A DNA stretch of 64,000 bases, taken from the IMG/VR virus record IMGVR_UViG_3300045988_168162, positions 64,001-128,000 of that record; one strand, given 5' to 3'. The notes below the pieces were generated by a model. It saw nothing but the letters and a program-made list of their open reading frames with translations, had not been told where the DNA came from and searched no databases. This DNA comes from a virus. A program made the translations under genes and the position numbers. Positions 7,519-57,377 of this stretch are shown piece after piece (positions within the stretch are counted from its first letter, which is position 1; each line of letters begins with the position of its first letter).

Positions 7519-7925
7519 TGGATGCACTACAATTCTTAAAAACGGCCAAGCGCATGTGCAACAAGCGCGGTCAATGCACCTGCTGCCCAATACACGATTT
7601 TTGCAACAATAACTTTAGCGAATGCTCAGATGCTTTGTTCCTTGACACAATAAAGGCTGTTGAACAATACAATAAGGACCATCCGGCCAAAGAGACCCGC
7701 AAAGACCGTCTGCTGCGCTCCCTTCCAACTTCGCCCATTAACGCCAATGGCGACCCGGATCTTTGCCCAGAAGATTATGGTGAAAATAATTATTACGATA
7801 ACGGATTGTTCCCTTGTGAGATTTTCAAAAGCGATTGCGCTACCTGCAAGCATGAATACTGGTCAGAAGAACCACATGGGCCAGCATATTGGGACAAGTA
7901 TTGGGAGGAAGACTATGGACGCTAA
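7518..7925 (+). CDS. Cys-rich paralog 1 (MDAxxFLK family)
   Basis: Shares MDALQFLK...VEQ(W/Y)...P.KETR...C-x2-C-K-x-EYW-x-EE with the next three genes. Confidence 0.6.
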   Translation: MDALQFLKTAKRMCNKRGQCTCCPIHDFCNNNFSECSDALFLDTIKAVEQYNKDHPAKETRKDRLLRSLPTSPINANGDPDLCPEDYGENNYYDNGLFPCEIFKSDCATCKHEYWSEEPHGPAYWDKYWEEDYGR

Positions 7926-8262
7926 AGAATTTTTGAAGTGTTTTATACGATATTGTAATAATACATCGTGTGATGACTGTGTGATGATTGCAGACGGGTG
8001 TTATCCCGGTGCAATTACGGATATTGATCGGCTGATTGATAAAGTCGAACAGTGGGGCAAAAACAACCCGCTTCCGCGCAAGGTTATTCGTCAGGACAGA
8101 ATGCTTGAACAGTTTCCATACGCCCCGCTTGATAAAAACGGCGTCATTGATCAATGCCCAGATTATCCGACCTATGGATTTTCGAGCGCACGATGCAAGA
8201 AATACAGCAATGATTGCTACGCTTGCCGTAAGGCATATTGGCTAGAGGAGATTGATGAGTAA
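7915..8262 (+). CDS. Cys-rich paralog 2 (MDAxxFLK family)
   Basis: MDAKEFLK start inside the 7660..8262 ORF; VEQWGKNNP ... CYACRKAYWLEE. Confidence 0.6.
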   Translation: MDAKEFLKCFIRYCNNTSCDDCVMIADGCYPGAITDIDRLIDKVEQWGKNNPLPRKVIRQDRMLEQFPYAPLDKNGVIDQCPDYPTYGFSSARCKKYSNDCYACRKAYWLEEIDE

Positions 8263-8579
8263 TGGACGCTGTTGAATTTCTGAAACTGCGCCGCCGCTAT
8301 TTCAATGAAAGCGGTTGGAATCCTAACATGCCCGACGGCTCCAGCCCTTACGCTGATGATGAAACTATCGAACGGTACGTTGCAAGAGTTGAACAATGGG
8401 GCAGAGAGCATCCAAAAGAAACACGGCAGAGCAAATTTTTGAAATTGTTCCCGGATGCGCCTATCGTTGATGGAACAATTCTGGTCTGTCCGAAGATTAT
8501 CGACAATGGCTGGAAACAACCTTGCGACAGAATGGATTGCCATAAATGCCGCGAAAAATATTGGAAGGAGATTTACTGA
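8262..8579 (+). CDS. paralog 3 (MDAxxFLK family; N-terminal Cys cluster lost)
   Basis: MDAVEFLK ... VEQWGREHPKETRQSKFLKLFP ... CHKCREKYWKE. Confidence 0.6.
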   Translation: MDAVEFLKLRRRYFNESGWNPNMPDGSSPYADDETIERYVARVEQWGREHPKETRQSKFLKLFPDAPIVDGTILVCPKIIDNGWKQPCDRMDCHKCREKYWKEIY

Positions 8580-8929
8580 TGGATGCAGTTGAATTTGTTA
8601 AGACGGTAAACAGGTTATGCAAAAATCTACGCTGCAAGGAATGTCCTGTTTATAAAGAGGGAATATGCACGGTTGGGTTCGACGACTATTCAGTTAAAAG
8701 CATTAAGGAAACAGTTTCAAAAGTCGAGCAATGGGCAAAAGACTATCCAGTCAAAACCAGGCAGGACGAGTTCTTGAAACTGTTTCCCAATGCCAGAATA
8801 GATAATTGTGGAATTTTGGACATTCGCCCTTGTTGTATTGAAGTTAGCCTTTGCGGTAAATGTGACCTGAGAAACTGCGATGGTTGCCGCCGCGAATACT
8901 GGCTTGAGGAGGTGACCGACAATGACTAA
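8579..8929 (+). CDS. Cys-rich paralog 4 (MDAxxFLK family)
   Basis: MDAVEFVK ... VEQWAKDYPVKTRQDEFLKLFP ... CDGCRREYWLEE; TGATG overlap. Confidence 0.6.
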   Translation: MDAVEFVKTVNRLCKNLRCKECPVYKEGICTVGFDDYSVKSIKETVSKVEQWAKDYPVKTRQDEFLKLFPNARIDNCGILDIRPCCIEVSLCGKCDLRNCDGCRREYWLEEVTDND

Positions 8930-9512
8930 CATCACATCCCTGCGCCCTGGAGAACACTTCATGTTCAAAGGCTTCGAGTGGGTATGCCTTGACCCGAATC
9001 ACCCTGACGGCGGCATGCTGGCAATTATGGCAACGCCGTGGGCAAAAGATGTAAAATTCTGCCCAAGTGATAAATTCGTCGAGGAGAAAGGCAACTGGAA
9101 TAACTACCGCACGAGCTTGATTCGTGATATTCTGAATGATTCCCTTGCTAAAAAGATCAGAGCTAACAAGCTCGGAGACAACCTGCTTTTGCATACCGTT
9201 GACCTTGTTGCAGATAATGGCGACCGCGCCTATGGTGCTGTGGCAGACCTCGTTTTCATCCTCACTTGCGACGAGTACCGCAAGTACCGTGACTACATCC
9301 CGCACTACGATAGCTGTACATGGACTGCCACACCTTGGGGTTGCGGGTATGCGTATTACAACGCAGGCGCTGTTCGCCTTGTGAACACGGAAGGCAGGTT
9401 TTGTGAAAGCGGTGCGTACAACAGATATGCGGTCGTCCCAGCTTGTATTCTCAATCCGAAATCGCTCAATCTGCGCCAGAACATGGCATATGTAGAAGAG
9501 GTAGCAGAATGA
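8922..9512 (+). CDS. DUF6273-like protein
   Basis: F.WVCLD..., NWNNYRTSLIRDILNDSL, AVVPACIL pattern recalled from DUF6273-type proteins of Firmicutes. Confidence 0.4.
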   Translation: MTNITSLRPGEHFMFKGFEWVCLDPNHPDGGMLAIMATPWAKDVKFCPSDKFVEEKGNWNNYRTSLIRDILNDSLAKKIRANKLGDNLLLHTVDLVADNGDRAYGAVADLVFILTCDEYRKYRDYIPHYDSCTWTATPWGCGYAYYNAGAVRLVNTEGRFCESGAYNRYAVVPACILNPKSLNLRQNMAYVEEVAE

Positions 9513-9781
9513 GCACCATTTTAAGACATAAATATGTCACGACCAGAAAACCGCATATCTGTTTTGGCTGTGGCCGTGAATTTGAACCGCCCGTAAAAAT
9601 GATTTCTGCCGCAAGCGCGGATGGCGGCACAGTGGAATCATACTACCTGTGTGAGACTTGCGACACGATTGTTTCCCGTATGAGATGGGATGATGAATAC
9701 GGCTTTGGAGAATTGCGCGAAGAAGCGTTAAAAATTGAAACAACGGCAGCTGCAAAAGGATGGGCTCCATATAATGACTAA
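9509..9781 (+). CDS. zinc-ribbon protein
   Basis: CFGCG ... CETC; ATGA overlap. Confidence 0.45.
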   Translation: MSTILRHKYVTTRKPHICFGCGREFEPPVKMISAASADGGTVESYYLCETCDTIVSRMRWDDEYGFGELREEALKIETTAAAKGWAPYND

Positions 9782-9794
9782 CAGAGGATATAAC

Positions 9795-10055
9795 ATGAAC
9801 GACAACCCAGTCAAAGAAATCACACGCCCTTGCATCATGGTCTACAAAGGCTACGGTGTCACACAGATCTGTATGGAATGCGACGAAGAGACCGGCAGAG
9901 CTATCCTTTACGGCAAGCTGGATGGTATTACGGACCTTATTACGTTCCAGGCAGATTCAATGCGCGAGATTGAACAATCATTCCATAATGCTGTTGATGA
10001 CTACCTGGACTTCTGCAAGGAAGTGGGGAAGGAGCCGGAGCGGCCACAGCCGTAA
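9795..10055 (+). CDS. HicB-like antitoxin-fold protein
   Basis: CIMVYKGYGVTQ...ILYGKLDGITDLITFQADSMREIEQSFHNAVDDYLDFCKEVGKEP matches the HicB N-terminal domain pattern; no HicA nearby. Confidence 0.45.
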   Translation: MNDNPVKEITRPCIMVYKGYGVTQICMECDEETGRAILYGKLDGITDLITFQADSMREIEQSFHNAVDDYLDFCKEVGKEPERPQP

Positions 10056-10142
10056 CGTTTACTAAGAGAAGAGGCTTTTCACTTAGCACGGTTGGATATG
10101 TTGCGGCGTTGTTTTTGATAGCAGAGCACGAACTTATAAAAA

Positions 10143-10484
10143 ATGGTGGAGAATAACAATATGTACTATGGGTTAGAGATCACTTGGCGAATGATAAACA
10201 AGACCATAAACAGGCCGAGTAAGGCTGTGCCTCATTGGATTTTCATTAAAGGCTATGACGCAGCGTCGGACAAAGCGTATGCCGAGCTGAACGGATATAA
10301 ATGGGAACCAAGTCCAGACAGATGGGTTTGCTCAAAATGCGGGGCGGCAACTAATGATATTTCTGCTAAGTGCTGCCCGCATTGTAATGTAGAGATGATT
10401 GGTAAGCCTGAAGTTATGTCGGAAACCATTGCAAGATTAAAAAAAGAAGTTCTTGAAGAAATGGAGGCAAAAAATGAGCTTTAA
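10143..10484 (+). CDS. zinc-ribbon protein
   Basis: CSKCG ... CPHC; the start could instead be 10161. Confidence 0.45.
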   Translation: MVENNNMYYGLEITWRMINKTINRPSKAVPHWIFIKGYDAASDKAYAELNGYKWEPSPDRWVCSKCGAATNDISAKCCPHCNVEMIGKPEVMSETIARLKKEVLEEMEAKNEL

Positions 10485-11298
10485 TGATGCCCTTGGTACT
10501 CGTATGAAAGAGTATTACGAGGCCGTTCCCAAAACTAAACTTATGCGACGTATGCCGGTAGCATTGAGAATCGACGGCAAGGCATTCCACACATTTACTC
10601 GTGGCTTTCAAAAACCTTTTGATATGATCCTGATGAAATCTATGTGGGACACCATGCGGTATCTTTGCCGGAATATCCAAGGCTGCGTGTTTGGCTATAC
10701 ACAGTCCGATGAAATCACGCTGATCCTGATTGACTACTAAACGCTTGCCACGGATGCTTGGTTCGATTACGAAGTCCAGAAGCTATGTAGCGTGTCCGCC
10801 AGCATGGCTACCATGGCATTTAATAATTTCTTTTCTGTTTGTGTTGACGATTATGGCAAAGCCAATATTGAAGACTGGTATCTTGGCGGCACAAATCGTG
10901 AGCTATCTGACAATGAACGCTCCGCTTTGAAGTACATAGAATCTTATACCAAATCATTGGCAGACGGCGCTATGTTTGATGCTCGTTGCTTCAATATCCC
11001 AAAAGAAGAAGTCTGCAATCTGATTTACTGGCGTCAGCTTGATGCGACACGCAATTCCATCCAGATGGTGGGACAAGCATATTTCTCACACAAACAGCTG
11101 GAGGGGAAGAAATGCAGTGATATTCAGGACATGCTTATGGAGCAATACAAAATCAATTGGGATAAATATACTACGCCATGTAAGCGCGGCACGGCCTGTA
11201 TTTATAAGGATGGCAAATGGGTCATCGACGCTGATATGCCTGTTCTGAAAGGTGAAGACCGCAAGTATGTTGACCAATACATTTTCGTAGGTGAGTAA
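10474..11298 (+). CDS. Thg1-like protein (tRNA-His guanylyltransferase family, 3'-5' nucleotidyltransferase) interrupted by in-frame TAA at 10738-10740
   Basis: VALRIDGKAFH and GYTQSDEITLIL catalytic carboxylate motifs; the C-terminal half has FDARCFNIP...YWRQLDATRNS. Both ORF-track pieces (10453.. and 10792..) are in the same frame and similarity continues right after the stop. Confidence 0.7.
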
Positions 11299-11300
11299 CG

Positions 11301-11588
11301 ATGACGGAACGTGTACGATTGCGGTTAAAATCGCTGAGCAAAGACCAACTTGTCAAACTGGTGGAGGATTATAAATACGCATTAGATATCATTGGAGAGA
11401 TTTGCGTTGATGAGTCTAAGGGCGCAGACGCGCATAGTCTCTTTACTGATATTCGTTTGCTCCTTAGAGAGTTTGATAGTTATGATTTGAACAGCGACAA
11501 CCTTGTTGCAGAGATTGATTTAAGCATGGGAAAAATAACACCAGAGAAATTCAGAAGTGTTGTCTTAGGAGATGATAACGATGAGTGA
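11301..11588 (+). CDS. hypothetical protein
   Basis: Tightly packed ORF. Confidence 0.45.
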   Translation: MTERVRLRLKSLSKDQLVKLVEDYKYALDIIGEICVDESKGADAHSLFTDIRLLLREFDSYDLNSDNLVAEIDLSMGKITPEKFRSVVLGDDNDE

Positions 11589-16229: not shown

Positions 16230-16354
16230 GAACTAACGCCCAACAGGGCGAAAATATAAATAGACTGGCCCCGATGGGGCAAGGGGGGGGTGATTTTATC
16301 GGAAATGCAGGAGTCTGGCTTTGAAATCTATGAACAGGGCATAATGGCCCCTGC

Positions 16355-33094: not shown

Positions 33095-33829
33095 ATGGCT
33101 ATGAATCCTAATATGGCTAACCGTGAGGTTATGAACCTGGTTCTGCTGGACTACAAGACCAAGGTCCCTTACATGAACATTGACTTTGCTAATGTTTCTA
33201 CCACCAACTTTACCGCCAACCGTGTGTACGCCAAGGGCGGCTGGGGTGCCCCTAACCGCGTTGGCTTTGACGGCGAGCGTACCGGCACCCTGCAGATCGA
33301 CACCCAGATCATGCCTGCCAAGCTGTTTGCGCTGCTTTCCGGCAAGGATATTGCCAAGACCGCCAAGGTCCTGAAGCGTGAGGAGCTGGCTGCCGGTGCT
33401 GACGGTCTGGAGCTGACCGAGGAGCCCAAGACCGGTACTGTCCAGGTGTTTGCTGCGTCTGACGATTGCGGCACCCCCATTTCTGGCGTTACCGCTACCG
33501 GCAAGAAGGTTACTGCTACCGGCATTACCGAGAACCAGAACTACATTGTTTACTACTACCTGGACAAGACCACCGGTGTGCAGAGCATTAAGTTTGACGC
33601 AGACACCTTCCCGAAGGCTTTTGAGATCCGCGGCGAGATGCCCTTTAAGACCGAGGACGAAGAGGATGTTATGTGCGACCTGACCTACTACAAGGCTCAG
33701 CCGCAGGCCACCTTTAACCTGGCTTTCCAGAACACCGGTGATCCGACCACTGTGTCCATCACCTTTGACTGCTACGCCAACCAGGATGGCGATATTTACG
33801 AGATGACTTTTGAGGACGGCACTGTCTGA
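33095..33829 (+). CDS. major tail (tube) protein
   Basis: 244 aa; AAGGAG SD; high-expression codon bias; strong terminator directly after. Confidence 0.55.
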   Translation: MAMNPNMANREVMNLVLLDYKTKVPYMNIDFANVSTTNFTANRVYAKGGWGAPNRVGFDGERTGTLQIDTQIMPAKLFALLSGKDIAKTAKVLKREELAAGADGLELTEEPKTGTVQVFAASDDCGTPISGVTATGKKVTATGITENQNYIVYYYLDKTTGVQSIKFDADTFPKAFEIRGEMPFKTEDEEDVMCDLTYYKAQPQATFNLAFQNTGDPTTVSITFDCYANQDGDIYEMTFEDGTV

Positions 33830-33852
33830 TCCTTGATTGACTGAACCTAGAA

Positions 33853-33880
33853 ACAGGGGAGCTACGGCTCCCTTGTTTTT
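33853..33880 (+). terminator. rho-independent terminator
   Basis: ACAGGGGAGC-TACG-GCTCCCTTGT, then TTTT. Confidence 0.65.
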
Positions 33881-33901
33881 AGATTTTAAGGAGATGAAAA
33901 C

Positions 33902-34204
33902 ATGGAAGAGATTAAGTTTGTGGAGACTACAGCAGCGGAACTGCCTGCCGCGCAGGTAAAGAAGCCGCGCAAGAAGGCGAAGCCGCAGGCTGAAGAGGTT
34001 GTTATGGAGACTATGCCGGAGACGCAAGTGCCGCCGATGCAGCAGGGGATTGTTGTTTACCGCAATGAGGCTACCGATGTACTGGGTTTTGAGTGCGATG
34101 GCCATGGCTACCAGGTGCCAGGCGCAAAAGAACTGGGGTATAAGCTTGGCGACAATGTCGATTTTATGGTAGTTGATGGAAAGATCGTGTTTGGCATTGC
34201 GTAA
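33902..34204 (+). CDS. hypothetical protein
   Basis: AAGGAG SD. Confidence 0.4.
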   Translation: MEEIKFVETTAAELPAAQVKKPRKKAKPQAEEVVMETMPETQVPPMQQGIVVYRNEATDVLGFECDGHGYQVPGAKELGYKLGDNVDFMVVDGKIVFGIA

Positions 34205-34595
34205 TAAGTACAAAGTTTCGGCAAAAGAGGACCGCACCTATGATGGGATTGTGTTTGACTCTAAGGCCGAGATGAAATACTACCGGGATGTTGTGCTGCC
34301 CGGCGTTGCCAACGGGACGATTGTGGATTATCAGTTACAAAAGCCGTATGAGCTGCAGCCGAAATTTAAACATGACGGCAAAACCGTGCGAGCTATAACT
34401 TATGTATGTGATTTTTACCTGGTGTATGCAGATGGGCATACTGAGGTAATTGATATAAAAGGTATGGCGACTACGGAAGCATTGCTGAAGCGAAAGCTGT
34501 TTATGTACAGATACCCGGATGAAAACTGTATATGGCTGGTGGAACGCAAGGCCGGTTGGATACGATATGAAGATTGCAAAAAGCGTAAAAAATAG
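34197..34595 (+). CDS. DUF1064-type nuclease-fold protein
   Basis: NKYKVSAKEDRTYDGIVFDSKAEMKYY ... DFYLVYADGHTEVIDIKG pattern; start uncertain. Confidence 0.5.
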   Translation: MRNKYKVSAKEDRTYDGIVFDSKAEMKYYRDVVLPGVANGTIVDYQLQKPYELQPKFKHDGKTVRAITYVCDFYLVYADGHTEVIDIKGMATTEALLKRKLFMYRYPDENCIWLVERKAGWIRYEDCKKRKK

Positions 34596-34605
34596 GGAGG
34601 CTTTT

Positions 34606-34686
34606 ATGACCAATAAAATTTTGCGGGGGGGGGTACTCCCTTAATGTAGTACCCGAAATGCACCTTACGAAAGTGGGGTGTTGGGT
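34606..34686 (+). promoter_or_regulatory. leader 1: mini-ORF (MTNKILRGGVLP, 34606-34644), G9 tract (34625-34633), hairpin 1 (34631-34654), hairpin 2 with GAAA loop (34661-34680)
   Basis: AGGGAGG SD before the mini-ORF; stems GGGTACT/AGTACCC and CACCTTAC/GTGGGGTG; the second stem covers the SD-like GGGGTG of the cassette. Confidence 0.6.
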
Positions 34687-35019
34687 ATGAGTGTTGCGCT
34701 GATGAGTGCAGGCGGCGGTAGCGGAAGTATTACAAGAGTAGAGCTTGTAGATTTGTCATTTTCACGATATAGTGGTAGTTTTACTAAAACGGCAGATGTT
34801 TCTTCGTATAAAGGATACAAAAAATTCACTAATGATAATTTTGTTGTTATGACGACATCTGTATATATGGGTGATAGCGACGCTTATGCAGGCAGCAGTT
34901 ACAGTGTGTCTTACAATCAAGATACTGGAATTGTTACTTTTACTGTGAAGATAAATACGAACGCAAATGGCGGGTATCATCAACATTCTGCTTCTGCCAA
35001 AGGATATTTATTTTACTAA
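34687..35019 (+). CDS. cassette protein 1 (conserved MSVALM..GGG N-terminus, unique C-terminus)
   Basis: MSVALMSAGGGSGS...; paralogous N-terminus shared with 35129, 36129 and 36769. Confidence 0.6.
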   Translation: MSVALMSAGGGSGSITRVELVDLSFSRYSGSFTKTADVSSYKGYKKFTNDNFVVMTTSVYMGDSDAYAGSSYSVSYNQDTGIVTFTVKINTNANGGYHQHSASAKGYLFY

Positions 35020-35038
35020 TTAAAACAAGGAGTTATTT

Positions 35039-35128
35039 ATGAATTACATGAATTTTGTCCGGGGGGGGGGTACTGTGTAAACCATAGTATCTCCGAAGCA
35101 TCTCGTTTAGAAAGCGAGGTGCTGTGAT
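35039..35128 (+). promoter_or_regulatory. leader 2: mini-ORF (MNYMNFVRGGGTV, 35039-35080), G10 tract (35061-35070), hairpin 1 (35066-35094), hairpin 2 (35098-35122)
   Basis: AAGGAG SD; stems GGGGGTACT/AGTATCTCC (2 G-U pairs) and GCATCTCG/CGAGGTGC, the latter covering GAGGTG. Confidence 0.6.
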
Positions 35129-35572
35129 ATGGCATTAGCTTTGATGGGGCCTGGCGGTGGCGGAAGTAATAAAGAAATATCAAAAATGAAGTCTACAAGA
35201 CTATGGACGAACGCAAACTCTTTTAAGAATTTTGACGGAAACGGTATCAAAGGAGGCCCTGGCTCCACACCAAATATTCCACTTTCAAATTTAACTGATT
35301 ATGATGTACTCGCTATTGCGTGTAAATTATACACTAACAGTTCTAATGACAATCCATTTATTAACTATATTGGAGTAAAAGAACAAATTTTGAATGGGAA
35401 AAATGGTGGATTATTTATATTGTGTGGAGGAACTGGCGGATCTGCTGGCGTTTTTAGAAACGCGCGTCTTCTCTCTACTGGCCTTTGTGTTACGTGGGAC
35501 ACAGGATCACTGGACGGGGAACATGTATCTAATGATGGAGCAATTCCATTGTATGTAGATGGATTAAAGTAA
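35129..35572 (+). CDS. cassette protein 2
   Basis: MALALMGPGGGGSNKE...; unique C-terminus. Confidence 0.6.
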   Translation: MALALMGPGGGGSNKEISKMKSTRLWTNANSFKNFDGNGIKGGPGSTPNIPLSNLTDYDVLAIACKLYTNSSNDNPFINYIGVKEQILNGKNGGLFILCGGTGGSAGVFRNARLLSTGLCVTWDTGSLDGEHVSNDGAIPLYVDGLK

Positions 35573-35581
35573 GAGGTAAAT

Positions 35582-36001
35582 ATGAAAATCTATGATGAGA
35601 TCACTAAAGAGGAGCTGACGGCTCCTGATGAAAGTAAAGGTTATCTGTATGATAGCCAGATTAAAACTGGCATGACTAAGGACGCCTATGAAGTTATGGT
35701 AGGAACTGTTACTGAGGATTGTCCGAATGGCTTGCGCCGTTTGATCCCCGGCCATGCTGTTTTTGAGGCTTGCCAGTTCTACCATACATATACCGACGAG
35801 GAAATCAAGCGCATGGAAGAGCAGGCTGCTGCGGAGCAGGCTGCAAAAGACCGTGAGGCCAAGATTGCGATGATTGACTCGATTGATGCGCAGGTGACTT
35901 ATACTGCCATGATGACGGATACGCTGATGGAAGAGACTGATAGCGGTGAAGGCTCCGGCAGTGATGGCGCGGCTGATTCTACTGATAGCAAGGAGGCTTA
36001 A
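35582..36001 (+). CDS. tail-fibre-associated protein (the type found upstream of XkdX genes)
   Basis: MKIYDEITKEELTAPDESKGYLYD... pattern, typical of genes preceding xkdX in Firmicutes phages; Ala/Glu coiled coil. Confidence 0.4.
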   Translation: MKIYDEITKEELTAPDESKGYLYDSQIKTGMTKDAYEVMVGTVTEDCPNGLRRLIPGHAVFEACQFYHTYTDEEIKRMEEQAAAEQAAKDREAKIAMIDSIDAQVTYTAMMTDTLMEETDSGEGSGSDGAADSTDSKEA

Positions 36002-36003
36002 TT

Positions 36004-36132
36004 ATGTTTGAGAAAATTAAGCGTTGGTATCCGAAACTGTGGAACAAAACCATGGTGAAGAATGCTGTAAAGAAGGGTGTTATTACTCCTGAACAGTACA
36101 AGGAAATTGTTGGAGAGGAGTATAAAGCATGA
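36004..36132 (+). CDS. XkdX-family small protein (42 aa)
   Basis: MFEKIKRWYPKLWNKTMVKNAVKKGVITPEQYKEIVGEEY; found by hand; its TGA overlaps the ATG of the next cassette. Confidence 0.6.
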   Translation: MFEKIKRWYPKLWNKTMVKNAVKKGVITPEQYKEIVGEEYKA

Positions 36133-36644
36133 GTGTTGCAATGATGGGGGCTGGCGGTATCGTAAACAATCGCGCTTCTCTAGTGCCTGCTATGACATCT
36201 AACAGTCAAAATGGTTATACAGTTTCTGCAAGTAATTACTATAATAATGATAGTAGCCTTTACCCAATTTGGCACGCTTTTGATGGCAACACCATTCGTG
36301 GTGGGTGGGCTGAACAAGCAAATGGTTCTACGCTATACGTCGGTGCCAGTAATAGAAACGTAGATGTTGATATTACATTTCCAAAAGAAGTATCCGTGCA
36401 TGCTGTAAAAGTTATTGCATCAACCTATGAAGCTGGTGGTGTTCGACAGCCTGCAAGTGCCTCACTTTCCTATTGCAATAAATCCGGTTCATATATTTCA
36501 GTTAATATTAACCAAATAGCTGCCGGTAAATCTGGCACGACAGACGACTGTAATGGAGTCGAATATCCTAAAAGTAAAAAATGGCGTGTCACTTTAGTAA
36601 GATTGGGTGAATATATTGGGTTAAATCAGATTCTTTTATTTTAA
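36129..36644 (+). CDS. cassette protein 3 with discoidin/F5-8-type-C-like carbohydrate-binding domain
   Basis: N-terminus MSVAMMGAGG, then HAFDGNTIRGGWAEQ ... VDVDITFPKEVSVHAVKV, typical of galactose-binding-like domains. Confidence 0.55.
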   Translation: MSVAMMGAGGIVNNRASLVPAMTSNSQNGYTVSASNYYNNDSSLYPIWHAFDGNTIRGGWAEQANGSTLYVGASNRNVDVDITFPKEVSVHAVKVIASTYEAGGVRQPASASLSYCNKSGSYISVNINQIAAGKSGTTDDCNGVEYPKSKKWRVTLVRLGEYIGLNQILLF

Positions 36645-36679
36645 ATGTTTATTATCGAATTTAATTGGAGGTATATTTT

Positions 36680-36772
36680 ATGATTAAGAATATTCTGCGG
36701 GGGGGGGGGTATAGTAATCTAAACTATACCTCTGATATGGATACTTGTGCCGGAAAGGCGGTGCGAGTATGA
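36680..36772 (+). promoter_or_regulatory. leader 3: mini-ORF (30 aa in the current frame), G11 tract (36699-36709), hairpin 1 (36706-36732), hairpin 2 (36744-36767); the mini-ORF TGA overlaps the cassette ATG
   Basis: TTGGAGG SD; stems GGGGTATAG/CTATACCTC and CTTGTGCCG/CGGTGCGAG; ATGA junction at 36769-36772. Confidence 0.6.
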
Positions 36773-37173
36773 GTGTTGCGTTGATGGGACCTGGTGGCGG
36801 CGACTCGAATTTTAAAAAGATGTTTAAAGATTTGTCGTTTTCAAGTGCCGAAAGGGTTCTGCTCTGGACAAATAGCAATCACACAAATAATAACACAGGC
36901 AGTGTTACTGCCGATACTGGCTCTCAGCTTTATGCTGCTTATTGTATAACTGTAAAAGGGCACTCTTCTCTTAGTCCACAATATGTAGCTGAATTTATTG
37001 CTATTCGTGGTGCATCTCATAATGCCGTTGGTGGAATTGATAGAAGCATTTGGCGTGGTGTTAAAATTGATGGTTCAAACATTACAATAGGAACACCATA
37101 TGCTGGTGAAACAACGCACTGGGAGAGTACCATTGTGTACCAGATTTATGGCATCAAAGGAACAGAACTTTAA
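36769..37173 (+). CDS. cassette protein 4
   Basis: MSVALMGPGGGDSNFKK...; unique C-terminus. Confidence 0.6.
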   Translation: MSVALMGPGGGDSNFKKMFKDLSFSSAERVLLWTNSNHTNNNTGSVTADTGSQLYAAYCITVKGHSSLSPQYVAEFIAIRGASHNAVGGIDRSIWRGVKIDGSNITIGTPYAGETTHWESTIVYQIYGIKGTEL

Positions 37174-37189
37174 TTAAATTATGTTATAG

Positions 37190-37228
37190 CCTCGCACCTT
37201 GGATAGGTGCGGGGCGATTTTTTATTTT
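37190..37228 (+). terminator. rho-independent terminator
   Basis: CCTCGCACC / GGTGCGGGG stem, then a T-rich run. Confidence 0.6.
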
Positions 37229-37243
37229 AAAGGAGAATTTTGT

Positions 37244-37741
37244 ATGGAAATTAAGAAAAATATTACCGTGCAGGAGCGCGTGGATTTTGTGAATTTTGTT
37301 GTGGATACTTGCACGGTGGATAGCCGCTATGTACCGGCACTGTTTGATTTTGCCTGGCGTGCGGGCGTGGTGAAGTTTTTTGCACCGGAGGTTTGGGAGC
37401 ACCTGGGCGGCCAGGATGATATTTGCGATTTTGTGTACAGCCGTGACGGCATTGAAATTGTAGAACACCCGGATATTGCCGAGGTCACCGCTGGCCTGTA
37501 TGAAGCCTGCCAGGAAGAGATTAAGAACCGGCGCGAGGAATATATGGTGGTTTACCAGAGCGTGGCACACCCTGACCCGATGGACCGTATTGCGGATGCC
37601 TTTGAAGAGATTGCAGGAGCCATGAAGGGGCTGAATGACCCGGACATGCTGGTGGAGATTGCCAAGAAGGCCGGGCTGGTAGGGAAGAAGGCTGCACCGG
37701 CTGGTAAGGCTGTACCGCTGGAGCTTGCTAAGAAGGAGTAA
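37244..37741 (+). CDS. tail assembly chaperone candidate
   Basis: AAGGAG SD; acidic 165 aa protein two genes upstream of the tape measure. Confidence 0.4.
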   Translation: MEIKKNITVQERVDFVNFVVDTCTVDSRYVPALFDFAWRAGVVKFFAPEVWEHLGGQDDICDFVYSRDGIEIVEHPDIAEVTAGLYEACQEEIKNRREEYMVVYQSVAHPDPMDRIADAFEEIAGAMKGLNDPDMLVEIAKKAGLVGKKAAPAGKAVPLELAKKE

Positions 37742-37744
37742 GAC

Positions 37745-38218
37745 ATGGCTACGGTAACAACGCTGAAAGGTTTAGAGCTTGAAATGCAGCGGCGCATTAA
37801 CCGTGCCCTACGTGGAGAAGTTGCGAACGAAGTAGAGAAATGCGTGCAGAAACATGTGCAGCAGGATGTTTTAAGCAAATATGAGCCTGTTGCATATGAA
37901 CGGCGTGGCGGTGGCGGCCTGGAAGGTGAGGCCAATATCAAAAGCGCTGTACGAGACAAAACTTTGACGGTTAAGGATGTGGCACAAATAGAGGGGCCAA
38001 GACTCCCTGGTTACTCGGCCAGTCATGCTTCTGACACTGAATTTTCCAAACTGATTGAAGGATATGGAAAAGGCGTTGCGAACCCGTGGGGTGGCAGGAA
38101 TGGTGCGTGGACAAAACCGCGCCCATTTATGACAAATGCAAAAAAAGAGATTGTCCGTGAAAATAGTCAGGTTCATGGGCGGATTGTAAAAGCTATAAAA
38201 AAGCAATTTCCTGAATAA
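37745..38218 (+). CDS. HK97 gp10-like tail component
   Basis: LEMQRRINRALRGEVANEV ... KPRPFMTNAKKE resembles the gp10-family pattern. Confidence 0.45.
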   Translation: MATVTTLKGLELEMQRRINRALRGEVANEVEKCVQKHVQQDVLSKYEPVAYERRGGGGLEGEANIKSAVRDKTLTVKDVAQIEGPRLPGYSASHASDTEFSKLIEGYGKGVANPWGGRNGAWTKPRPFMTNAKKEIVRENSQVHGRIVKAIKKQFPE

Positions 38219-38306
38219 ACGGCAGAGGCTTCGGCCTTTGTCTTGAGTGGTTAGTGATAAATAACCGTTGAAGAGAAAGGCCGAAAGCCATAAGGAGGAT
38301 AAAATT

Positions 38307-41300
38307 ATGGCAGAAGATTTAAATATTAAGGTAAAGGTAACACCTGATACCAGTGGGGTACAGGGAGAGCTAAATGGACAGGCTGGTAGGTTTAATTTGC
38401 CAGTAAAAGTGTCACTGCAGAATGTTGCGGATATACAAACTCAAATTCAAAATATCGGCAAAAACATTGATGTTAAAGTTAATCTTACTATGGCACAGAA
38501 CGGTGTAAAAAATCAACTAAATAGTTTAAAGAATCAAAAGGTTGATATGCAACTGTTCGACACCACGAAACTTACGCAGGAATTAAATAAAGTAAGCAGT
38601 GCTATTGAAAAAGCTGTCTCAAAGATTCAGATCGCTTTGTCTACAAAGATAGATTCTACAATGAAGGCAACTGCGAGCAATGTCGAAAACCTCGGAAAAT
38701 CTTTTGGCACTATTCAGACAAGAATAGATTCTATTAAAAATACTGGCGACAAGGCTAAAATGCAGGCCGGCCTCGATACTGCCAAGAAGAACTATAACAA
38801 TCTTATTCAGCTTGGCACATTGACAACAGAACAATTTAGTGGGATGGCTACTCAGCTTGCTATGGTGAATCGCCAAGTTCTTGACATTGTTGCGTCTGAA
38901 AAGAAATTAGAAAATCAAGCAGCAAGAGTCGCCAAGATCAATATGCGTGGCGATGAACTTATTGATTCTTACAATCGTGGTAATGCAGATTTGAAAGATG
39001 TGTATGATGCGTCTGCTAAGAAATATAGAACAAAAGACGACAGAAACGCAAAACGCAGATTGGATCGACAGCAAAATAGGATTAGCGGTCTCATTCAAAA
39101 TTTCCAGAACAATCCTACGACAGAAAACTTTGATCTTCTATCTCATGAAATTACGATGTATGAGCGAAACAGCAATGATTTGCAGAGTACATTAAGAGCC
39201 GAAAAGAAAGAATGGGAAGATAACGAAAAAGCAAAACAGAATGCTGCAAAAGCTACTGCTGCCGTGGCAAAGAAGACGCAGGAAGCGCAACAAAAAGCAG
39301 AAGATGCACGAAAAAAGACTGCATCGAATTTGAATCAGCAATTTGCAAATTCTGATTTTTCTGATTCGCAAATTAAATATTTCGCAGCAAAAAACAACGG
39401 TTATAGCACTGCAGATATGAAGCGGTACTTCGCAAGTACAGACAAATGGAACATTAAGCTCAAATCCGCGATTTCCGCATTTAATAATGATCCTACTGAA
39501 CAGAATCTTAAAAAGCTGACTACTACCTATAATGGATATATTACCGCCAAGAAAAAGTTGGATACTTCCTTGACTGAAGAAAAATCCAAATGGGAAAAGA
39601 CAGCAGCCGGTATTAAAAAATCCGGGGAAGACCTTGGCAAAACATATTCGGCGCTTGAACAGAAAAAGGCAAAACTTGATTCTACTTACACCAAAAAAGT
39701 AGAAGGAACACAATTTACAAATCAGGCCATTGAAGATCTTGCAAAAGGGCAAAATGGCACGACCAGTATTGCTACATTGTTTACTGATGCAGAGACCGCG
39801 AAAAAAGATTTTGAAAAAAATATGGACAGCGGTTCTCTTGCACGATATAAAGCTGCAATAGAAGCTTTGACGCAGGCGCTTGCCAAAATGGACGCAGAGC
39901 TTACTGTAGCCGCAAAAAGCTCTGACCAGTTCAATAGTCAAATGCGGGCAAAACAGAACAAATACTCCAGTGAGATGACCCGGCTTAGTCAGTCCGGCAC
40001 TGATTTACAGGATCTTGCAATAAGAACTGGCCATGGAAACATGGTTAATAGCAACACGGCGGAAGGCGTACTTTGGGGAGAAGTTTCTGACGCCAGCAAA
40101 GAAGCAAGAACCGCAATGGCGGAGTTCGATCAAAAGCTTGACACAAACAGCCTTTTGAAGTACGAGCAGGCATTGCAGCACCTAAAAGAGTTGCTATCTC
40201 AGTTCCGTGATGAACTGACGAAAACTATTACTGCTACTAATAAGATGGGCGATATTAAAGATACAAACGCCGCCCAAATGAGTGAATATCAGAAGAGTTT
40301 GCAGGAGCTTACCGCAAGATATAATACCGCTGTTGCAAGTAAACAGGCCAACGGTAAGGATATGGGCGGTTTGCTTGTCGGAACGGATTTAACTGCTATC
40401 AATGACGCTTACACTAAAGCAGATCAAGCCAAAGCGAATTTTGAGCGCGATATGAATCAGACTTCGCTGGCTGCCTACAAAACGGCCATGGCTGCTTTGG
40501 CGCAGGAAATTCGCAATCTGACTTCTGCTTTGGACTCTGCTGATAATTCTGCGGAGAAGGCATTTAGTTCGTTGCCAACACAGATGAATGCTGTCGAAGG
40601 CACCCTCAAGACGTTAAATGATACATATCGTGCGCAGCAAAACCGCGGTAAAAGTGATGCTGGCGTAGAAAGCACAATTCAGCTTTATACTGATGTGCTT
40701 AAAGAGATGCGGCAGATAGAAGCTTCTGGCAGTAATGACTATTCTCAATTCACGGAAATGTTCAAGAAGTTTGATTCGCAATTGCAAGCATCTGGCATTA
40801 ACATCAATAACTTTACAGACTTCATGCGAGCCATGAATTCCGTGGCTACTCAGGCAAAAGTTTCTATTGGTGATCTTGGCAACGAATTCAAACAGCAACA
40901 GAGCATTGAGTCTTTGAATAAGCGCTTGAACAATCTACTGTATACCATGGAGCGCTATGTTGAGATCAATAAAAAGATCCAGGGCAATTCTGACGTAATG
41001 AACCAGTACAATAGTGTGAAATCTGATATTCAGAGTGCCTTGCGGAGTACAGATGGCGCATTTAAAGAAAGTACATTGTCTAAGGCTGCTGAAGGATTTT
41101 CGGCACTGAAAAAACAGGCGCAGGATCTTGAGCTTGAGGGTAAGACACTGAGCCAAGTATTCCAGAATCTGTTTGGCCAGCATTTTAGTACGATGGTCGC
41201 CATGGGTGCGCTGCATTTGATGCAGAATAGCTTACAGCAGGTTTATCAGAATGTCGTGGATATTGATACGGCTATGACGGAACTGAAGAAGGTTACGGAT

Positions 41301-42359
41301 GAGACGAGCTCGACTTATTCTAAGTTTTTGAGTGACGCCGGTAACCAGGCCAAGGAGTTGGGCGCCAGTGTTAGCGATGTGGTTAGCGCGACTGCCGACT
41401 TTGCCCGGCTTGGATATAACTTACAGGATGCCAATGAGATTGCCGAGTCTGCCATTATGTTTAACCGTGTTGGCGACGGCGTTTCTGATGTTAATGAGGC
41501 CAGCGAAGATATTATTTCGGCTATGAAGGCTTTTAATATCGAGGCCGAAAACAGTCAGCAAATCGTTGACAAATACAACGAGGTAGGTAATAATTATGCC
41601 ATCAGTTCGGCAGGTGTCGCGGACGCCTTGACTAGATCGGCCGCTGCACTGCATGCCGCCGGAAACGATATTAACCAATCTATTGGTATGATCGTAGCAG
41701 CCAATGATGTCGCCCAATCGCCCGAGCAGGTAGGAAATGCCTTAAAGGTACTTTCTTTACGTATTCGTGGAGCGACTACTGAACTTGAGGCCATGGGCGA
41801 AGATGCCGACGGAGCCGCGACCAGCACAGCAAAACTACAGGCTGAAATTAAGGCTTTGTCTGGCGTTAATATCATGAAGGATCGGGATACATTCAAATCT
41901 ACATACGAAATCTTGGATGAATTGGCTGATAAGTGGGATAGTCTAACTGACGTCTCCAAGGCCAGCATCCTGGAGGACCTTGCTGGCAAAAACCGCGCCA
42001 GTGTTGTAGCCGGTATGTTGGAAAACTGGGATGATGCCAAGAAAGCCATGGAGACAGCACAGAAAAGTGCAGGCAGCGCAGAAGCGGAGTTGGAGACAGC
42101 ATTGGATTCCGTGCAGGGCAAGCTCTCTCAGTTCCAAGCTACTTTTCAATCTTTTTCCGAGACCGTCCTCGATTCTGATTTAGTTAAAGGTATTATTGAT
42201 TTTGGTACAAGCGCACTAGATGCTGCAGATGGATTTACCAAATGGGCCGGAGTAATCCCGACCTTGACCGCAGCATTAAGTGCCTTTTTGTCGTTGTCTG
42301 GTACGAAGACTCAGGGCAGTATTCAGATGCTCGCTTACGCAGTAGGAATAGCTGCGTAG
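38307..42359 (+). CDS. tape measure protein, N-terminal part (contains a TP901-type core)
   Basis: AAGGAGG SD; long coiled coil; core region TELKKVTDETS...GYNLQDANEIAESAIMFNRVGDG...AGVADALTRSAAAL; ends in a hydrophobic segment. Confidence 0.8.
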   Translation: MAEDLNIKVKVTPDTSGVQGELNGQAGRFNLPVKVSLQNVADIQTQIQNIGKNIDVKVNLTMAQNGVKNQLNSLKNQKVDMQLFDTTKLTQELNKVSSAIEKAVSKIQIALSTKIDSTMKATASNVENLGKSFGTIQTRIDSIKNTGDKAKMQAGLDTAKKNYNNLIQLGTLTTEQFSGMATQLAMVNRQVLDIVASEKKLENQAARVAKINMRGDELIDSYNRGNADLKDVYDASAKKYRTKDDRNAKRRLDRQQNRISGLIQNFQNNPTTENFDLLSHEITMYERNSNDLQSTLRAEKKEWEDNEKAKQNAAKATAAVAKKTQEAQQKAEDARKKTASNLNQQFANSDFSDSQIKYFAAKNNGYSTADMKRYFASTDKWNIKLKSAISAFNNDPTEQNLKKLTTTYNGYITAKKKLDTSLTEEKSKWEKTAAGIKKSGEDLGKTYSALEQKKAKLDSTYTKKVEGTQFTNQAIEDLAKGQNGTTSIATLFTDAETAKKDFEKNMDSGSLARYKAAIEALTQALAKMDAELTVAAKSSDQFNSQMRAKQNKYSSEMTRLSQSGTDLQDLAIRTGHGNMVNSNTAEGVLWGEVSDASKEARTAMAEFDQKLDTNSLLKYEQALQHLKELLSQFRDELTKTITATNKMGDIKDTNAAQMSEYQKSLQELTARYNTAVASKQANGKDMGGLLVGTDLTAINDAYTKADQAKANFERDMNQTSLAAYKTAMAALAQEIRNLTSALDSADNSAEKAFSSLPTQMNAVEGTLKTLNDTYRAQQNRGKSDAGVESTIQLYTDVLKEMRQIEASGSNDYSQFTEMFKKFDSQLQASGININNFTDFMRAMNSVATQAKVSIGDLGNEFKQQQSIESLNKRLNNLLYTMERYVEINKKIQGNSDVMNQYNSVKSDIQSALRSTDGAFKESTLSKAAEGFSALKKQAQDLELEGKTLSQVFQNLFGQHFSTMVAMGALHLMQNSLQQVYQNVVDIDTAMTELKKVTDETSSTYSKFLSDAGNQAKELGASVSDVVSATADFARLGYNLQDANEIAESAIMFNRVGDGVSDVNEASEDIISAMKAFNIEAENSQQIVDKYNEVGNNYAISSAGVADALTRSAAALHAAGNDINQSIGMIVAANDVAQSPEQVGNALKVLSLRIRGATTELEAMGEDADGAATSTAKLQAEIKALSGVNIMKDRDTFKSTYEILDELADKWDSLTDVSKASILEDLAGKNRASVVAGMLENWDDAKKAMETAQKSAGSAEAELETALDSVQGKLSQFQATFQSFSETVLDSDLVKGIIDFGTSALDAADGFTKWAGVIPTLTAALSAFLSLSGTKTQGSIQMLAYAVGIAA

Positions 42360-42870: not shown

Positions 42871-43299
42871 ATGGCTGCATATACATTTGACGGAATTCCA
42901 GCAGGGGCGCTTACAATTGGTATTCTTGTGGATGTGTATGCAAATTTTGCACGAAAATGTGTTACTGGAATTATAGATACTGGGTGCTCAAATACATGTA
43001 TTTCTGAGGAATTGGCAGGGATAATGGAGTTGCATCCTTGTGGCCATACAGAATATACTGTTGTTGGCGGAGATAGGGTTTCCGTCAATAAATACATGGT
43101 TAATATAATGATTGATGACACAATACCGTGCGGAGACATCGAAGCAGGTTCTTACCATAAAGGCTCGGAATTTTACGATGTGATTATTGGCATGGATATA
43201 CTTAGTAAGTGCGATTTTGCAGTTACAAGCGCAAATGGCCACATGAAGCTAACTATGGAGTATCCTTCTAAACGAGACCTCGATTTTACAAAAGAATAA
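42871..43299 (+). CDS. retropepsin-like (clan AA) aspartic protease
   Basis: GIIDTGCSNTCIS (DTG active-site motif) and VIIGMDILSK. Confidence 0.6.
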   Translation: MAAYTFDGIPAGALTIGILVDVYANFARKCVTGIIDTGCSNTCISEELAGIMELHPCGHTEYTVVGGDRVSVNKYMVNIMIDDTIPCGDIEAGSYHKGSEFYDVIIGMDILSKCDFAVTSANGHMKLTMEYPSKRDLDFTKE

Positions 43300-43560
43300 C
43301 CGCAGGGTGGCACCTACGGCTATACATTTAATATTTTATGTCAGCTTACGCGGAGGCAGTGCTAAGTCGCGTAAACAATGTTTAATCAGCAGCCGGAGAC
43401 CCGTGCAGTTTACTGCACAGATGGAGGGTGTGACCTCTGGGTTTCTGGTTCATCGACTGTATGGGTAGCCCTATTCTATGGCCTTTGCCGGATGGGAGGA
43501 AAGACAGTCAGAACATCATGGGAAAGCCATGAGAAGGTTATAATTTTACAACCATGGGTA

Positions 43561-43589
43561 TTGACATACAACTAAAGGTGTGGTATTAT
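43561..43589 (+). promoter_or_regulatory. sigma70 promoter with extended -10
   Basis: TTGACA, 17 nt spacer, TGgTATTAT. Confidence 0.5.
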
Positions 43590-43595
43590 AATTGC

Positions 43596-43730
43596 GCCGA
43601 AAAGTTAGGAATGTTGCAGCCACAGAATTAAAGCCACCTTTTCTTTAAACTGTAGGTCATTTATCTCCAATTCCTTGTCAGTACCCTTTCCGGTATAGTC
43701 GCTGGGTTTGTCCGCCTGGCGGCTTTTTTG
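43596..43730 (+). ncRNA. candidate small RNA of about 135 nt
   Basis: Lies between the promoter at 43561 and a hairpin plus T6 at 43724-43729; only a 6-codon ORF inside. Confidence 0.35.
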
Positions 43731-43773
43731 TTTATAGGTATAATTTTGAGTTATCGGATTGTAAATATTTTTC

Positions 43774-43830
43774 TTGACATGAGGTTCAATTGAACTTATA
43801 ATATAGAAAAGAGTTCAGATGAACTTATAA
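43774..43830 (+). promoter_or_regulatory. consensus promoter with two palindromic operator-like sites
   Basis: TTGACA (43774), 17 nt spacer, TATAAT (43797); GTTCAATTGAAC (43784-43795) inside the spacer and GTTCAGATGAAC (43813-43824), each followed by TTATAA. Confidence 0.6.
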
Positions 43831-43844
43831 GGAGATATTTTGCA

Positions 43845-44177
43845 ATGGAAGAATTGAGCCTTGACGGATTCACTTTGGTAAACCTTACGTCCGCTTCGAC
43901 TTTACATCAAAAAAGGCTTGTGTTGGAGCTTACACAGCAACAAGTGGCTGACCGTGCGAACATAGACTTGCAGCAGTACCGTAAATTTGAATCCGGTGCA
44001 AGAGATGTACGCAGAGCCTCTTTTGATGTTGCTTGCCGTGTGATTAAAGCGCTGGAGATGGATGTTGGGAAATTTTTTGATGGTGATTATAGTTTTGGAG
44101 AAGAAATTTACAGCGAAAACGGCGAACTGAAATACAAAAAGACTGGCAGATCAACAAGCGATAATATTGACCAGTAA
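43845..44177 (+). CDS. XRE-family helix-turn-helix regulator
   Basis: LTQQQVADRANIDLQQYRKFESG pattern. Confidence 0.7.
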   Translation: MEELSLDGFTLVNLTSASTLHQKRLVLELTQQQVADRANIDLQQYRKFESGARDVRRASFDVACRVIKALEMDVGKFFDGDYSFGEEIYSENGELKYKKTGRSTSDNIDQ

Positions 44178-44201
44178 TAAATACTTGATATAAAAGTAAG
44201 A

Positions 44202-44232
44202 CCGCCCCTGCGAAGGGACGGCCTTTTATTGT
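44202..44232 (+). terminator. possible terminator
   Basis: CCGCCCC..GGGACGG stem with one mismatch, then TTTTATTGTTT. Confidence 0.4.
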
Positions 44233-44248
44233 TTATGAGGAGGTTTTT

Positions 44249-44407
44249 ATGACTTTACAGATTACAGGAGACGCAAAAGAAATAGCCGAATTGATTGAGA
44301 TGTTACAAAAGCAGTGCACTAAAGATGCCAAATTGAGAAATTATGTTTGCGGTTGCATCGAGAATAATAGTGGATCAATCAAATTGTCAAGACAAAATCT
44401 CGGGTGA
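44249..44407 (+). CDS. small hypothetical protein (52 aa)
   Basis: GAGGAGG SD 7 nt upstream; found by hand; 3' end overlaps the convergent gene. Confidence 0.4.
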   Translation: MTLQITGDAKEIAELIEMLQKQCTKDAKLRNYVCGCIENNSGSIKLSRQNLG

Positions 44408-56846: not shown

Positions 56847-57377
56847 ATGGGAATTAAATTTAAAAGACAAGGTGGCGGCTCGACCAACTATAACTCAGCC
56901 AAAGCGCCTACAAGTTTGAATTATGGCGAGCCTGCCGTTGACAGTGAAGGCCGCATTTATGTTGGCAATGGACAGCGCCAGGTAGTGAGCCGCGTAAAAA
57001 TTGCCGACAGCTGTACCAATGCGACCAGTGCTACGACTGCGGTGCGAGCCACGAATGCCAGTAATGCCGACCGGGCAAAATTCGATTTGCCGCTGTACCA
57101 TGCTTATCTTTCGGCGTCCAGCTGGAGCAATTATGGGAGTTATTATACACAGTCTCCCAGTTGTTACGCAGAGAGCGGCGGTCCTAGTATGACATCCGAC
57201 ATGCAGTTGAGCCCGCCTATGACGCAGGGCACAGGGGTGCAATCCACAGACGAATCGCTAATGGAAACGCTAAACATTATCAATGCGGGAACGACTACGC
57301 CCGGTTACGGAAGAATTACCGTAAAGGTTTGGGAAAAACCGGAGACAGACATTACTGTGTATTATTACGCACGATAA
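56847..57377 (+). CDS. hypothetical tail protein
   Basis: GGGGAGAAG SD. Confidence 0.4.
   Translation: MGIKFKRQGGGSTNYNSAKAPTSLNYGEPAVDSEGRIYVGNGQRQVVSRVKIADSCTNATSATTAVRATNASNADRAKFDLPLYHAYLSASSWSNYGSYYTQSPSCYAESGGPSMTSDMQLSPPMTQGTGVQSTDESLMETLNIINAGTTTPGYGRITVKVWEKPETDITVYYYAR

Follow-up and report, generated by a model that had tools for sequence, protein, structure and literature searches.

A locus of four small genes was analysed in a 64,000-nucleotide (nt) stretch of viral DNA (positions 64,001 to 128,000 of IMG/VR record IMGVR_UViG_3300045988_168162, referred to below as the window). We consider it moderately probable that this locus is a four-slot array of exchangeable tail-accessory proteins in which slots 1, 2 and 4 are poly-G contingency switches and slot 3 is constitutive. 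The slots are occupied by four open reading frames (ORFs) on the + strand: O1 in slot 1 (34687-35019, 110 amino acids (aa)), O2 in slot 2 (35129-35572, 147 aa), O3 in slot 3 (36129-36644, 171 aa) and O4 in slot 4 (36769-37173, 134 aa). What is most unusual about the locus, and was overlooked in an earlier, sequence-only reading of this DNA, is the set of poly-G leaders and hairpins preceding three of these genes.

A mini-ORF with a strong ribosome-binding site was located upstream of slots 1, 2 and 4 (ATG at 34606, 35039 and 36680), and each leader contained one long G run: G9 at 34625-34633, G10 at 35061-35070 and G11 at 36699-36709. These were the only runs of G or C of at least 9 bases in the 64 kb. 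The slot 1 leader (34606-34644, + strand; GGGAGG site) reads MTNKILRGGVLP to its stop as assembled, its G9 placing it in an uncoupled phase, and the slot 2 leader (35039-35080, + strand; AAGGAG site) reads MNYMNFVRGGGTV to its stop, with its G10 also in an uncoupled phase. The slot 4 leader (36680-36772, + strand; GGAGGT site) reads MIKNILRGGGYSNLNYTSDMDTCAGKAVRV to a TGA stop overlapping the ATG of the slot, and with its G11 this slot alone was in the coupled phase in the window as assembled. Tract lengths of 8, 11 or 14 bring the leader stop onto or beside the slot ATG in all three cassettes (-4 or +1), and the remaining two phases place it 40-57 nt upstream. The stop/start junctions of the coupled phase are ATGA in slots 1 and 4 and TGAtATG in slot 2. 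For slot 1, G8 or G11 gives a TGA overlapping the slot ATG, and G9 and G10 give stops 45 and 40 nt upstream of it; for slot 2, G8 or G11 carries the leader ORF to a TGA starting 4 nt before the slot ATG. The sole other long G run of the window was a G8 at 16283-16290, which follows a small palindrome of the GGGGCC...GGGGC type.

Slot 3 has no leader. Its GAGGAG site is free and unstructured (fold z = -0.4), and its ATG overlaps the TGA (ATGA) of a gene encoding a 42-aa XkdX-family protein (36004-36132, + strand; Pfam PF09693, 3.7e-16). Judged from this arrangement, slot 3 is presumed to be constitutive and coupled to XkdX.

Each G run was followed by two predicted hairpins, the second of which covers the ribosome-binding site of the slot gene. 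The slot 1 hairpins occupy 34627-34688 (+ strand), where hairpin 2 (34649-34688) pairs the GGGGTG site as well as the first bases of the start codon; the fold z was -2.5 with a pairing probability of 0.93 over positions -14 to +3, and hairpin 1 had a z of -2.8. The slot 2 pair (35069-35125, + strand) consists of hairpin 1 at 35069-35091 (z -2.4) and hairpin 2 at 35094-35125, which sequesters the GAGGTG site (fold z -3.1; pairing probability 0.69). The slot 4 pair (36709-36777, + strand) consists of hairpin 1 at 36709-36729 (z -3.3) and a hairpin 2 in whose inner stem (36741-36770) the ribosome-binding site is paired along with the AU of the start codon (fold z -4.9; pairing probability 0.70). 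Over positions -14 to +3 the pairing probability was 0.69-0.93 in the window and 0.69-0.99 across eight cassettes, compared with 0.49 +/- 0.14 for 34 control starts. The ribosome-binding sites of the slot genes were weak and predicted to be paired, whereas those of the leaders were strong and free. Hairpin 1 was present in all eight cassettes (z = -2.4 to -6.6), where it begins within the last 2-3 G of the tract; in the window it holds the stop codons of both phases in which the leader is uncoupled.

An Rfam scan of 33800-37400 at a permissive threshold returned nothing relevant, and therefore no known ribozyme or riboswitch accounts for the leaders. Matches to promoter consensus sequences within the array were no commoner than in shuffled sequence. 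Fusion of leader and slot protein by frameshifting was rejected, as the phases that are in frame with the slot gene contain stops (TAA at -45; TAA at -51 and TAG at -21; a stop at -57). Integron-like attC cassettes were considered on account of the repeated hairpins and were also set aside, since the hairpins lie upstream of each ORF and include its ribosome-binding site, which fits a translational role.

We propose that replication slippage in the hypermutable tract shifts the reading frame of the leader. In two phases of three (OFF) the ribosome would halt inside hairpin 1 while hairpin 2 would keep the slot site and AUG paired. In the ON phase (G8, G11 or G14) the ribosome would cross hairpin 2, terminate on or next to the slot AUG, unmask the start and re-initiate. 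The slot product would consist of a lineage-specific N-terminal peptide of about 10 residues, a glycine linker and a swappable body of about 100-160 aa, with bodies being exchanged by recombination between the conserved linker and leader sequences. The N-terminal peptide would tether whichever body is produced to a common tail partner. A phage population could then display varied combinations of binding modules, usually with one switchable slot on at once.

The length of the tracts varied among close relatives. The comparison covered 27 related arrays (the window, designated W, L001-L003, L034, L041, L042 and L057-L076) with 76 cassettes. Sequences flanking the tracts were 80-100% identical between contigs, mostly at least 95%, yet the tracts ranged from G6 to G12, with 2, 8, 16, 31, 17, 1 and 1 cassettes at the successive lengths. 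The coupled phase, predicted to be ON, was found in 19 of the 76 cassettes, and all three switchable slots were in this phase in some genomes. One allele, shared by L002 and L042, has its last G replaced by T and keeps the coupled frame. Exactly one slot was ON in 16 of 23 three-slot arrays (permutation p = 0.016), an excess that hints at selection for display of one slot at a time, although the test is weak as the contigs are related and the counts not independent.

The four slot genes share their first residues and little else. The N-termini are MSVALMSAGGG (O1), MALALMGPGGG (O2), MSVAMMGAGGI (O3) and MSVALMGPGGG (O4), with the common ten-residue form M-[SA]-[VL]-A-[LM]-M-G-x-G-G, and a motif search of all ORFs in the 64 kb found it in none besides these four. 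Pairwise BLASTP of the bodies past residue 12 revealed no significant similarity (best E = 0.03). The earlier description of four ORFs with nearly identical starts that then diverge was thus borne out in coordinates, lengths, motif and BLASTP result. Calling them paralogs goes too far, since nothing beyond the first ten or so residues is shared. A direct tandem array had also been described; in fact a 139-aa protein (35582-36001) and the XkdX-family protein separate O2 from O3. M1, A4, M6 and G10 were unchanged in 16 of 16 copies of the N-terminus from four genomes while their codons varied synonymously (Ala GCG/GCA/GCT; Gly GGT/GGC/GGA/GGG), and therefore selection has acted on the peptide and not on the DNA alone.

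The bodies are exchanged as units. In every slot gene, homology between sister genomes broke off within codons 6-14 and returned at or just past the stop, with breakpoints at 34704 to 35024, 35160-35169 to 35582, 36157-36160 to 36641-36647 and 36797-36802 to 37174-37188. Fifteen body families were distinguished among 125 motif-bearing ORFs, and one body can occupy different slots, each time with the N-terminal variant specific to that slot; the O2 body, for example, was also present in slot 1 of L059. The logic of a conserved N-terminus joined to a swappable body, as read from the window alone, was in this way supported by the breakpoints and by the movement of body families between slots. A diversity-generating retroelement was rejected as the source of this variation because bodies are swapped whole, with sharp breakpoints, no residual similarity and no pattern of point substitutions. 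Matches to the N-terminal DNA pattern in soil and Serratia sequences (L030, L032, L038, L039 and L045) look like chance; at the soil loci the encoded protein is an unrelated one of 164 aa that starts MALAMMGLGGC and no G-run leader is present, and L045 has no motif-bearing ORF.

The same frame logic was found in 3 + 5 + 1 cassette types of three lineages, the window lineage included. The second lineage is represented by a 255-kb contig, L046 (ENA ERZ27287290 k141_931098), with an array at 5142-11310. A fibre-like gene comes first there, followed by a gene for a homologue of the 35582-36001 protein (MKIYDETT), by XkdX and by a series of at least 12 small genes. Eleven poly-G tracts (G8-G11) were present, five of the leader type and six inside genes. 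In the leader-type tracts one phase in three couples and two hairpins follow, in sequence unrelated to that of the window, and the leader stops of the coupled phase lie at positions -11 to +1 of the start. The intragenic tracts are located directly after the N-terminal motif of this lineage (MSSQFM...GGG), and the run encodes the glycine linker. One tract of L046 was in the ON phase as assembled and all others were exactly one base from it. Correction to the one productive phase in three gave full-length homologues of O1 (2e-19), O3 (2e-23) and O4 (9e-11), so that the O1 body family recurs in this lineage with another N-terminus.

The third lineage comprises ordinary siphophages, in which the small genes follow those for the tape-measure protein (TMP), Dit and Tal and for a protein of ~190-320 aa, and have the N-terminus MGVAPRIPGG. 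The leader ORF in this lineage (MKHCKKSAACAARGYC followed by a stop) ends TGAtg on the slot start. Two leader alleles were seen (L052-L056, about 7920-8000, compared with L050, L051 and L022), one constitutive and one with an insertion of ~27-30 nt ending in poly-C (C8-C11). The poly-C run is complementary to the GGGGG ribosome-binding site of the gene downstream, with which the insertion pairs, and coupling is kept only at C9 or C12. The leader residues RGYC resemble the RGGGYS/C of the coupled-phase leaders of the window, which suggests common ancestry. O4-type bodies that are 51-99% identical carry four different N-termini, namely MS[VLI]ALMGPGGG, MGVAPRIPGG, MSSQFMMP and a longer fibre-repeat form, and in O3-type small proteins the N-terminus likewise varies with phage lineage. 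These comparisons support the view that the N-terminus tracks the phage lineage and not the body, and the position of the homologues after TMP-Dit-Tal in ordinary siphophages supports a tail association of the slot genes.

O3 had been assigned to the F5/8 type C domains from the strings AFDGNTIRGGW and VDVDITFPKEVSVHAVKV, both of which are found in the ORF at 36129. The O3 family profile matched PDB entry 7nsn at 1.7e-13 as well as 4a42, 2w1q, neuropilin b1, lactadherin C2 and factor VIII C at 1e-4 to 1e-2, which upholds the assignment with CBM32 as well as F5/8 C domains. Against Pfam PF00754, O3 had no match at E <= 0.1 and the curated threshold was not reached; one member of a related array matched this family at 2.9e-4. 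The model predicted for O3 reaches a pLDDT of only 57, which is low confidence, and agrees with the profile, as the top Foldseek matches were all CBM32 or F5/8 C and the model superposed on 2v72, 3nng and 2w1u (probability 1.0, TM 0.4-0.55). A CBM32/discoidin-like body for O3 is therefore supported by the family profile and, at low confidence, by this model. O3 differs from the known members of these families in falling below every Pfam threshold and in being a free-standing protein of 171 aa with an N-terminal tether, as proposed, and no enzyme module. O3-type domains also recur as repeats within fibre-like proteins of 500-3000 aa.

No family was found for O1, O2 or O4 in Pfam, PHROGs or NCBIfam, and PDB sequence searches with these three gave no match. 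The predicted O4 model (pLDDT 71) has disordered residues 1-13, then a short helix and a beta-sandwich. A fold search of this model against the PDB found nothing significant (no match below E = 0.2), with weak matches only to the C-terminal parts of tail-fibre proteins. Structure prediction pointed to a binding fold for O3, through a low-confidence CBM32-like model, and not for O4.

Of the alternatives weighed, the one that survives best, although we regard it as unlikely, is that the slot proteins are not bound to the virion. They would instead be accessory proteins of the XepA/YomS or moron type, with roles in lysis, superinfection exclusion or anti-defence, and the shared N-terminus would serve expression or recombination. 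The PBSX XkdV-XkdW-XkdX-XepA and SPbeta YomR-YomQ-YomP / YomS cassettes are relevant here, since the products of XepA and YomS, the genes after XkdW-XkdX (YomQ-YomP), are small, fold as beta-sandwiches and have an unclear function associated with lysis (PMC6834076), and O3 holds that position. As in those cassettes, in the same phage family, the gene next after one of the XkdX family encodes a small protein of unclear function, here with a CBM32-like body. The array is also missing from 17 relatives with the same tail genes and is thus dispensable. However, O1-O4 have no detectable homology to XepA or YomS and share with them only the position after XkdX; the XepA and YomS chains were absent among the PDB matches of O1-O4 by sequence and of the O3 and O4 models by fold. 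To our knowledge, neither poly-G leaders nor a shared N-terminal motif have been described for the PBSX/SPbeta cassettes. The recurrence of O3-type domains in large fibre-like proteins, the fibre-repeat N-termini on some O4 bodies and the location of the genes after Dit/Tal in ordinary siphophages likewise speak against this alternative, as does an N-terminal peptide that is under selection at the amino-acid level and changes with the lineage and not with the body.

Recoding at the tract is, in our estimate, improbable. The G run and hairpin 1 would then form a site of ribosomal frameshifting or transcriptional slippage, with a fixed small fraction reaching the slot AUG, a low stoichiometry of product and no heritable switch. 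A slippery homopolymer directly before a stable hairpin in eight of eight cassettes would suit such a site, as would a modal length (G9) lying a single step away from the coupled frame in each of the three slots. The tract lengths, however, differ in the DNA of near-identical genomes, and no single event serves all alleles as G9 needs +1 or -2 and G10 needs -1. In addition, six of the L046 tracts lie inside genes, as in classical contingency loci.

Very doubtful is the absence of any switch, with all four proteins being constitutive alternative receptor-binding proteins and the runs, mini-ORFs and length differences being incidental or sequencing errors: long G runs can be miscounted in short-read assemblies, several contigs have low coverage and some Shine-Dalgarno-like sequence precedes each slot gene, but the three tracts in 64 kb all occupy one equivalent position in homologous leaders, cassette types of three lineages share one and the same frame logic in unrelated sequence, the slot sites are weak and paired against strong and free leader sites, the coupled frame is retained through the G-to-T substitution in L002 and L042, and the modal length is not an ON length, so that miscounting of one true ON length cannot give the observed distribution.

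Several observations nonetheless weigh against an array of poly-G switched tail proteins. The commonest tract length, G9, is a predicted OFF length, and only 25% of cassettes were ON. The length distribution is symmetric about 9, which fits neutral slippage and also possible homopolymer-assembly noise, and many of the contigs come from related strains, so that the counts are not independent. For hairpin 1 several roles are conceivable, among them a platform on which the ribosome stops, a stimulator of frameshifting or an element that favours slippage of the DNA. The array is located between the tube and chaperone genes, outside the baseplate module. A pLDDT of 57 makes the O3 model a low-confidence one, and sequence searches with O1, O2 and O4 gave no recognisable binding fold, nor did the model of O4. 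ON/OFF expression, heritable switching within a population, attachment to the virion and host binding are inferred from sequence. What the sequences themselves show is the layout of the locus, the variation in tract length with its effect on the reading frame, the predicted masking structures, the exchange of cassettes and the CBM32-like character of O3.

The source of the window is a large SPbeta-like gut phage, a Firmicutes siphophage. Its large terminase (TerL) shares 42% identity with the terminases of SPbeta-like Bacillus phages, and genes of the window match the SPbeta tail families YomU, YomV and YomN. The flanking tail genes encode a YomU-type tube protein (33095-33829), a YomN-family protein (37745-38218) and the tape measure (38268-42359). 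Contigs of this lineage were from human-gut metagenomes, many of them ~85-175 kb, and single variants were indexed in well over 100 assembly blocks. No DNA match to cultured phages was found at blastn sensitivity. In 17 relatives with a tube protein 81-91% identical there is no array and the chaperone gene comes immediately after the DUF1064 gene; a block of ~2.6 kb (about 34596-37243) is therefore accessory. The DUF1064 (nuclease-like) gene itself (34173-34595, + strand) belongs to the tail operon, where it lies after the tube gene and before the array, and was conserved in 21 of 21 relatives.

The 139-aa protein between slots 2 and 3 (35582-36001, + strand), which carries the sequence MKIYDEIT, is conserved and holds the XkdW/YomQ position of PBSX and SPbeta. 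Homologues were found beside the small-gene arrays of all three lineages, with 53% identity to L046 4553-4990, and 488 or more relatives of this protein were found, none of them named. Slot 4 is followed by a strong intrinsic-terminator-like hairpin and T run (37189-37225, + strand) with an 11-bp stem including 8 GC pairs. The array ends with this hairpin, whose T run passes straight into the ribosome-binding site of the tail gene at 37244 (TTTTTTATTTTAAAGGAGA, 37189-37236) and which was conserved in array-bearing relatives. A similar hairpin was present at 33857-33894 after the tube gene, where the T run abuts the next ribosome-binding site (TTTTTAGATTTTAAGGAGA). Both look like attenuation points in the tail operon.

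A candidate for the partner of the N-terminal tether, put forward as a lead only, is a 176-aa protein encoded at 56847-57377 (+ strand). It was selected because its C-terminal domain of ~95 aa is homologous to the C-termini of the proteins directly preceding the arrays in L022, L050, L051, L055 and L046 (E = 1e-7 to 2e-10), and on this homology it may be the docking platform. Its gene is the last + strand ORF of at least 90 aa before the minus-strand genes beyond the tail genes. Past the tape measure, the region 42871-46060 contains an aspartyl-protease-like ORF, an HTH protein and three minus-strand ORFs, and is followed at 46123-51918 by a gene for a 1931-aa protein that also matches tape-measure PHROGs. 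The tail module is thus unusually interrupted.

The locus fits best among the phage contingency loci, as a variant that also involves modular tail-accessory proteins. In Campylobacter phages, genes for receptor-binding proteins are described as containing hypermutable poly-G tracts (Sorensen et al. 2021, Cell Rep 35:109214, as cited in PMC12823448), and contingency loci have been described in T2/T4 (2025 preprint, bioRxiv 10.1101/2025.10.21.683753). The present locus resembles these in having homopolymers in genes linked to host recognition, in the shift of frame with tract length and in the diversity expected to result. A rare long homopolymer, length polymorphism and a frame-dependent predicted ON/OFF state were all found in silico. 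It differs in that most tracts are in a separate leader mini-ORF coupled to the slot gene via a hairpin that masks the Shine-Dalgarno sequence, and in that the array comprises several slots, which would be switched independently and whose contents are exchangeable cassettes. The host of the system also differs, being a large SPbeta-like siphophage of gut Firmicutes, and switching here is predicted from sequence. Literature searches found nothing on switch arrays coupled through a leader ORF.

The receptor-binding proteins of lactococcal siphophages (p2 ORF18, TP901-1/Tuc2009 BppL) have a conserved N-terminal anchor and an exchangeable C-terminal head. The slot proteins are similar to them in being small (about 110-260 aa) and in combining an N-terminus conserved within a phage group with a C-terminal domain that is swapped by recombination. 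In the slot proteins, however, the conserved part is only ~10 residues plus a glycine linker and is predicted to be disordered, and in the PDB fold search with the O4 model the Tuc2009 and TP901-1 tripod chains were matched only at E about 1, with no significant similarity to known shoulder, neck or head domains. The location also differs, with the slot genes between the tube and chaperone genes, although their homologues in the third lineage follow Dit/Tal.

Translational coupling by unmasking of a sequestered ribosome-binding site is familiar from the coat and replicase genes of MS2 and from overlapping ATGA gene pairs. In the slots, as there, upstream translation is predicted to have to cross a hairpin that hides the Shine-Dalgarno sequence and AUG, with the leader stop overlapping or abutting the start (ATGA or TGAnATG). 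The difference is that a mutable homopolymer sets the upstream frame, so that an otherwise constitutive coupling device would become a stochastic switch. Both types of allele, constitutive and poly-C-gated, occur in the third lineage.

A more general picture is offered tentatively, as one that is possible but less secure than the reading of the four slots themselves. The array would be a wardrobe of surface-binding modules on a universal tether, each slot gated independently by a new kind of leader-homopolymer switch, and a clonal burst would release phages with differing sets of adhesins, typically with one switchable slot ON. The device would have arisen in, or spread to, at least three lineages, with poly-G or poly-C tracts in the leader or in the gene. 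If the switch works, it would be a second and mechanistically distinct form of phage-encoded phase variation of host-recognition proteins, after that of the Campylobacter phages, in a lineage that is very common in the human gut, and would provide a simple account of strain-level heterogeneity in host range. The combination of leader ORF, homopolymer and masking hairpin would represent a compact and portable device for stochastic gene switching, and the at least 15 families of small binding modules on a ten-residue tether would constitute a natural library usable in phage engineering.

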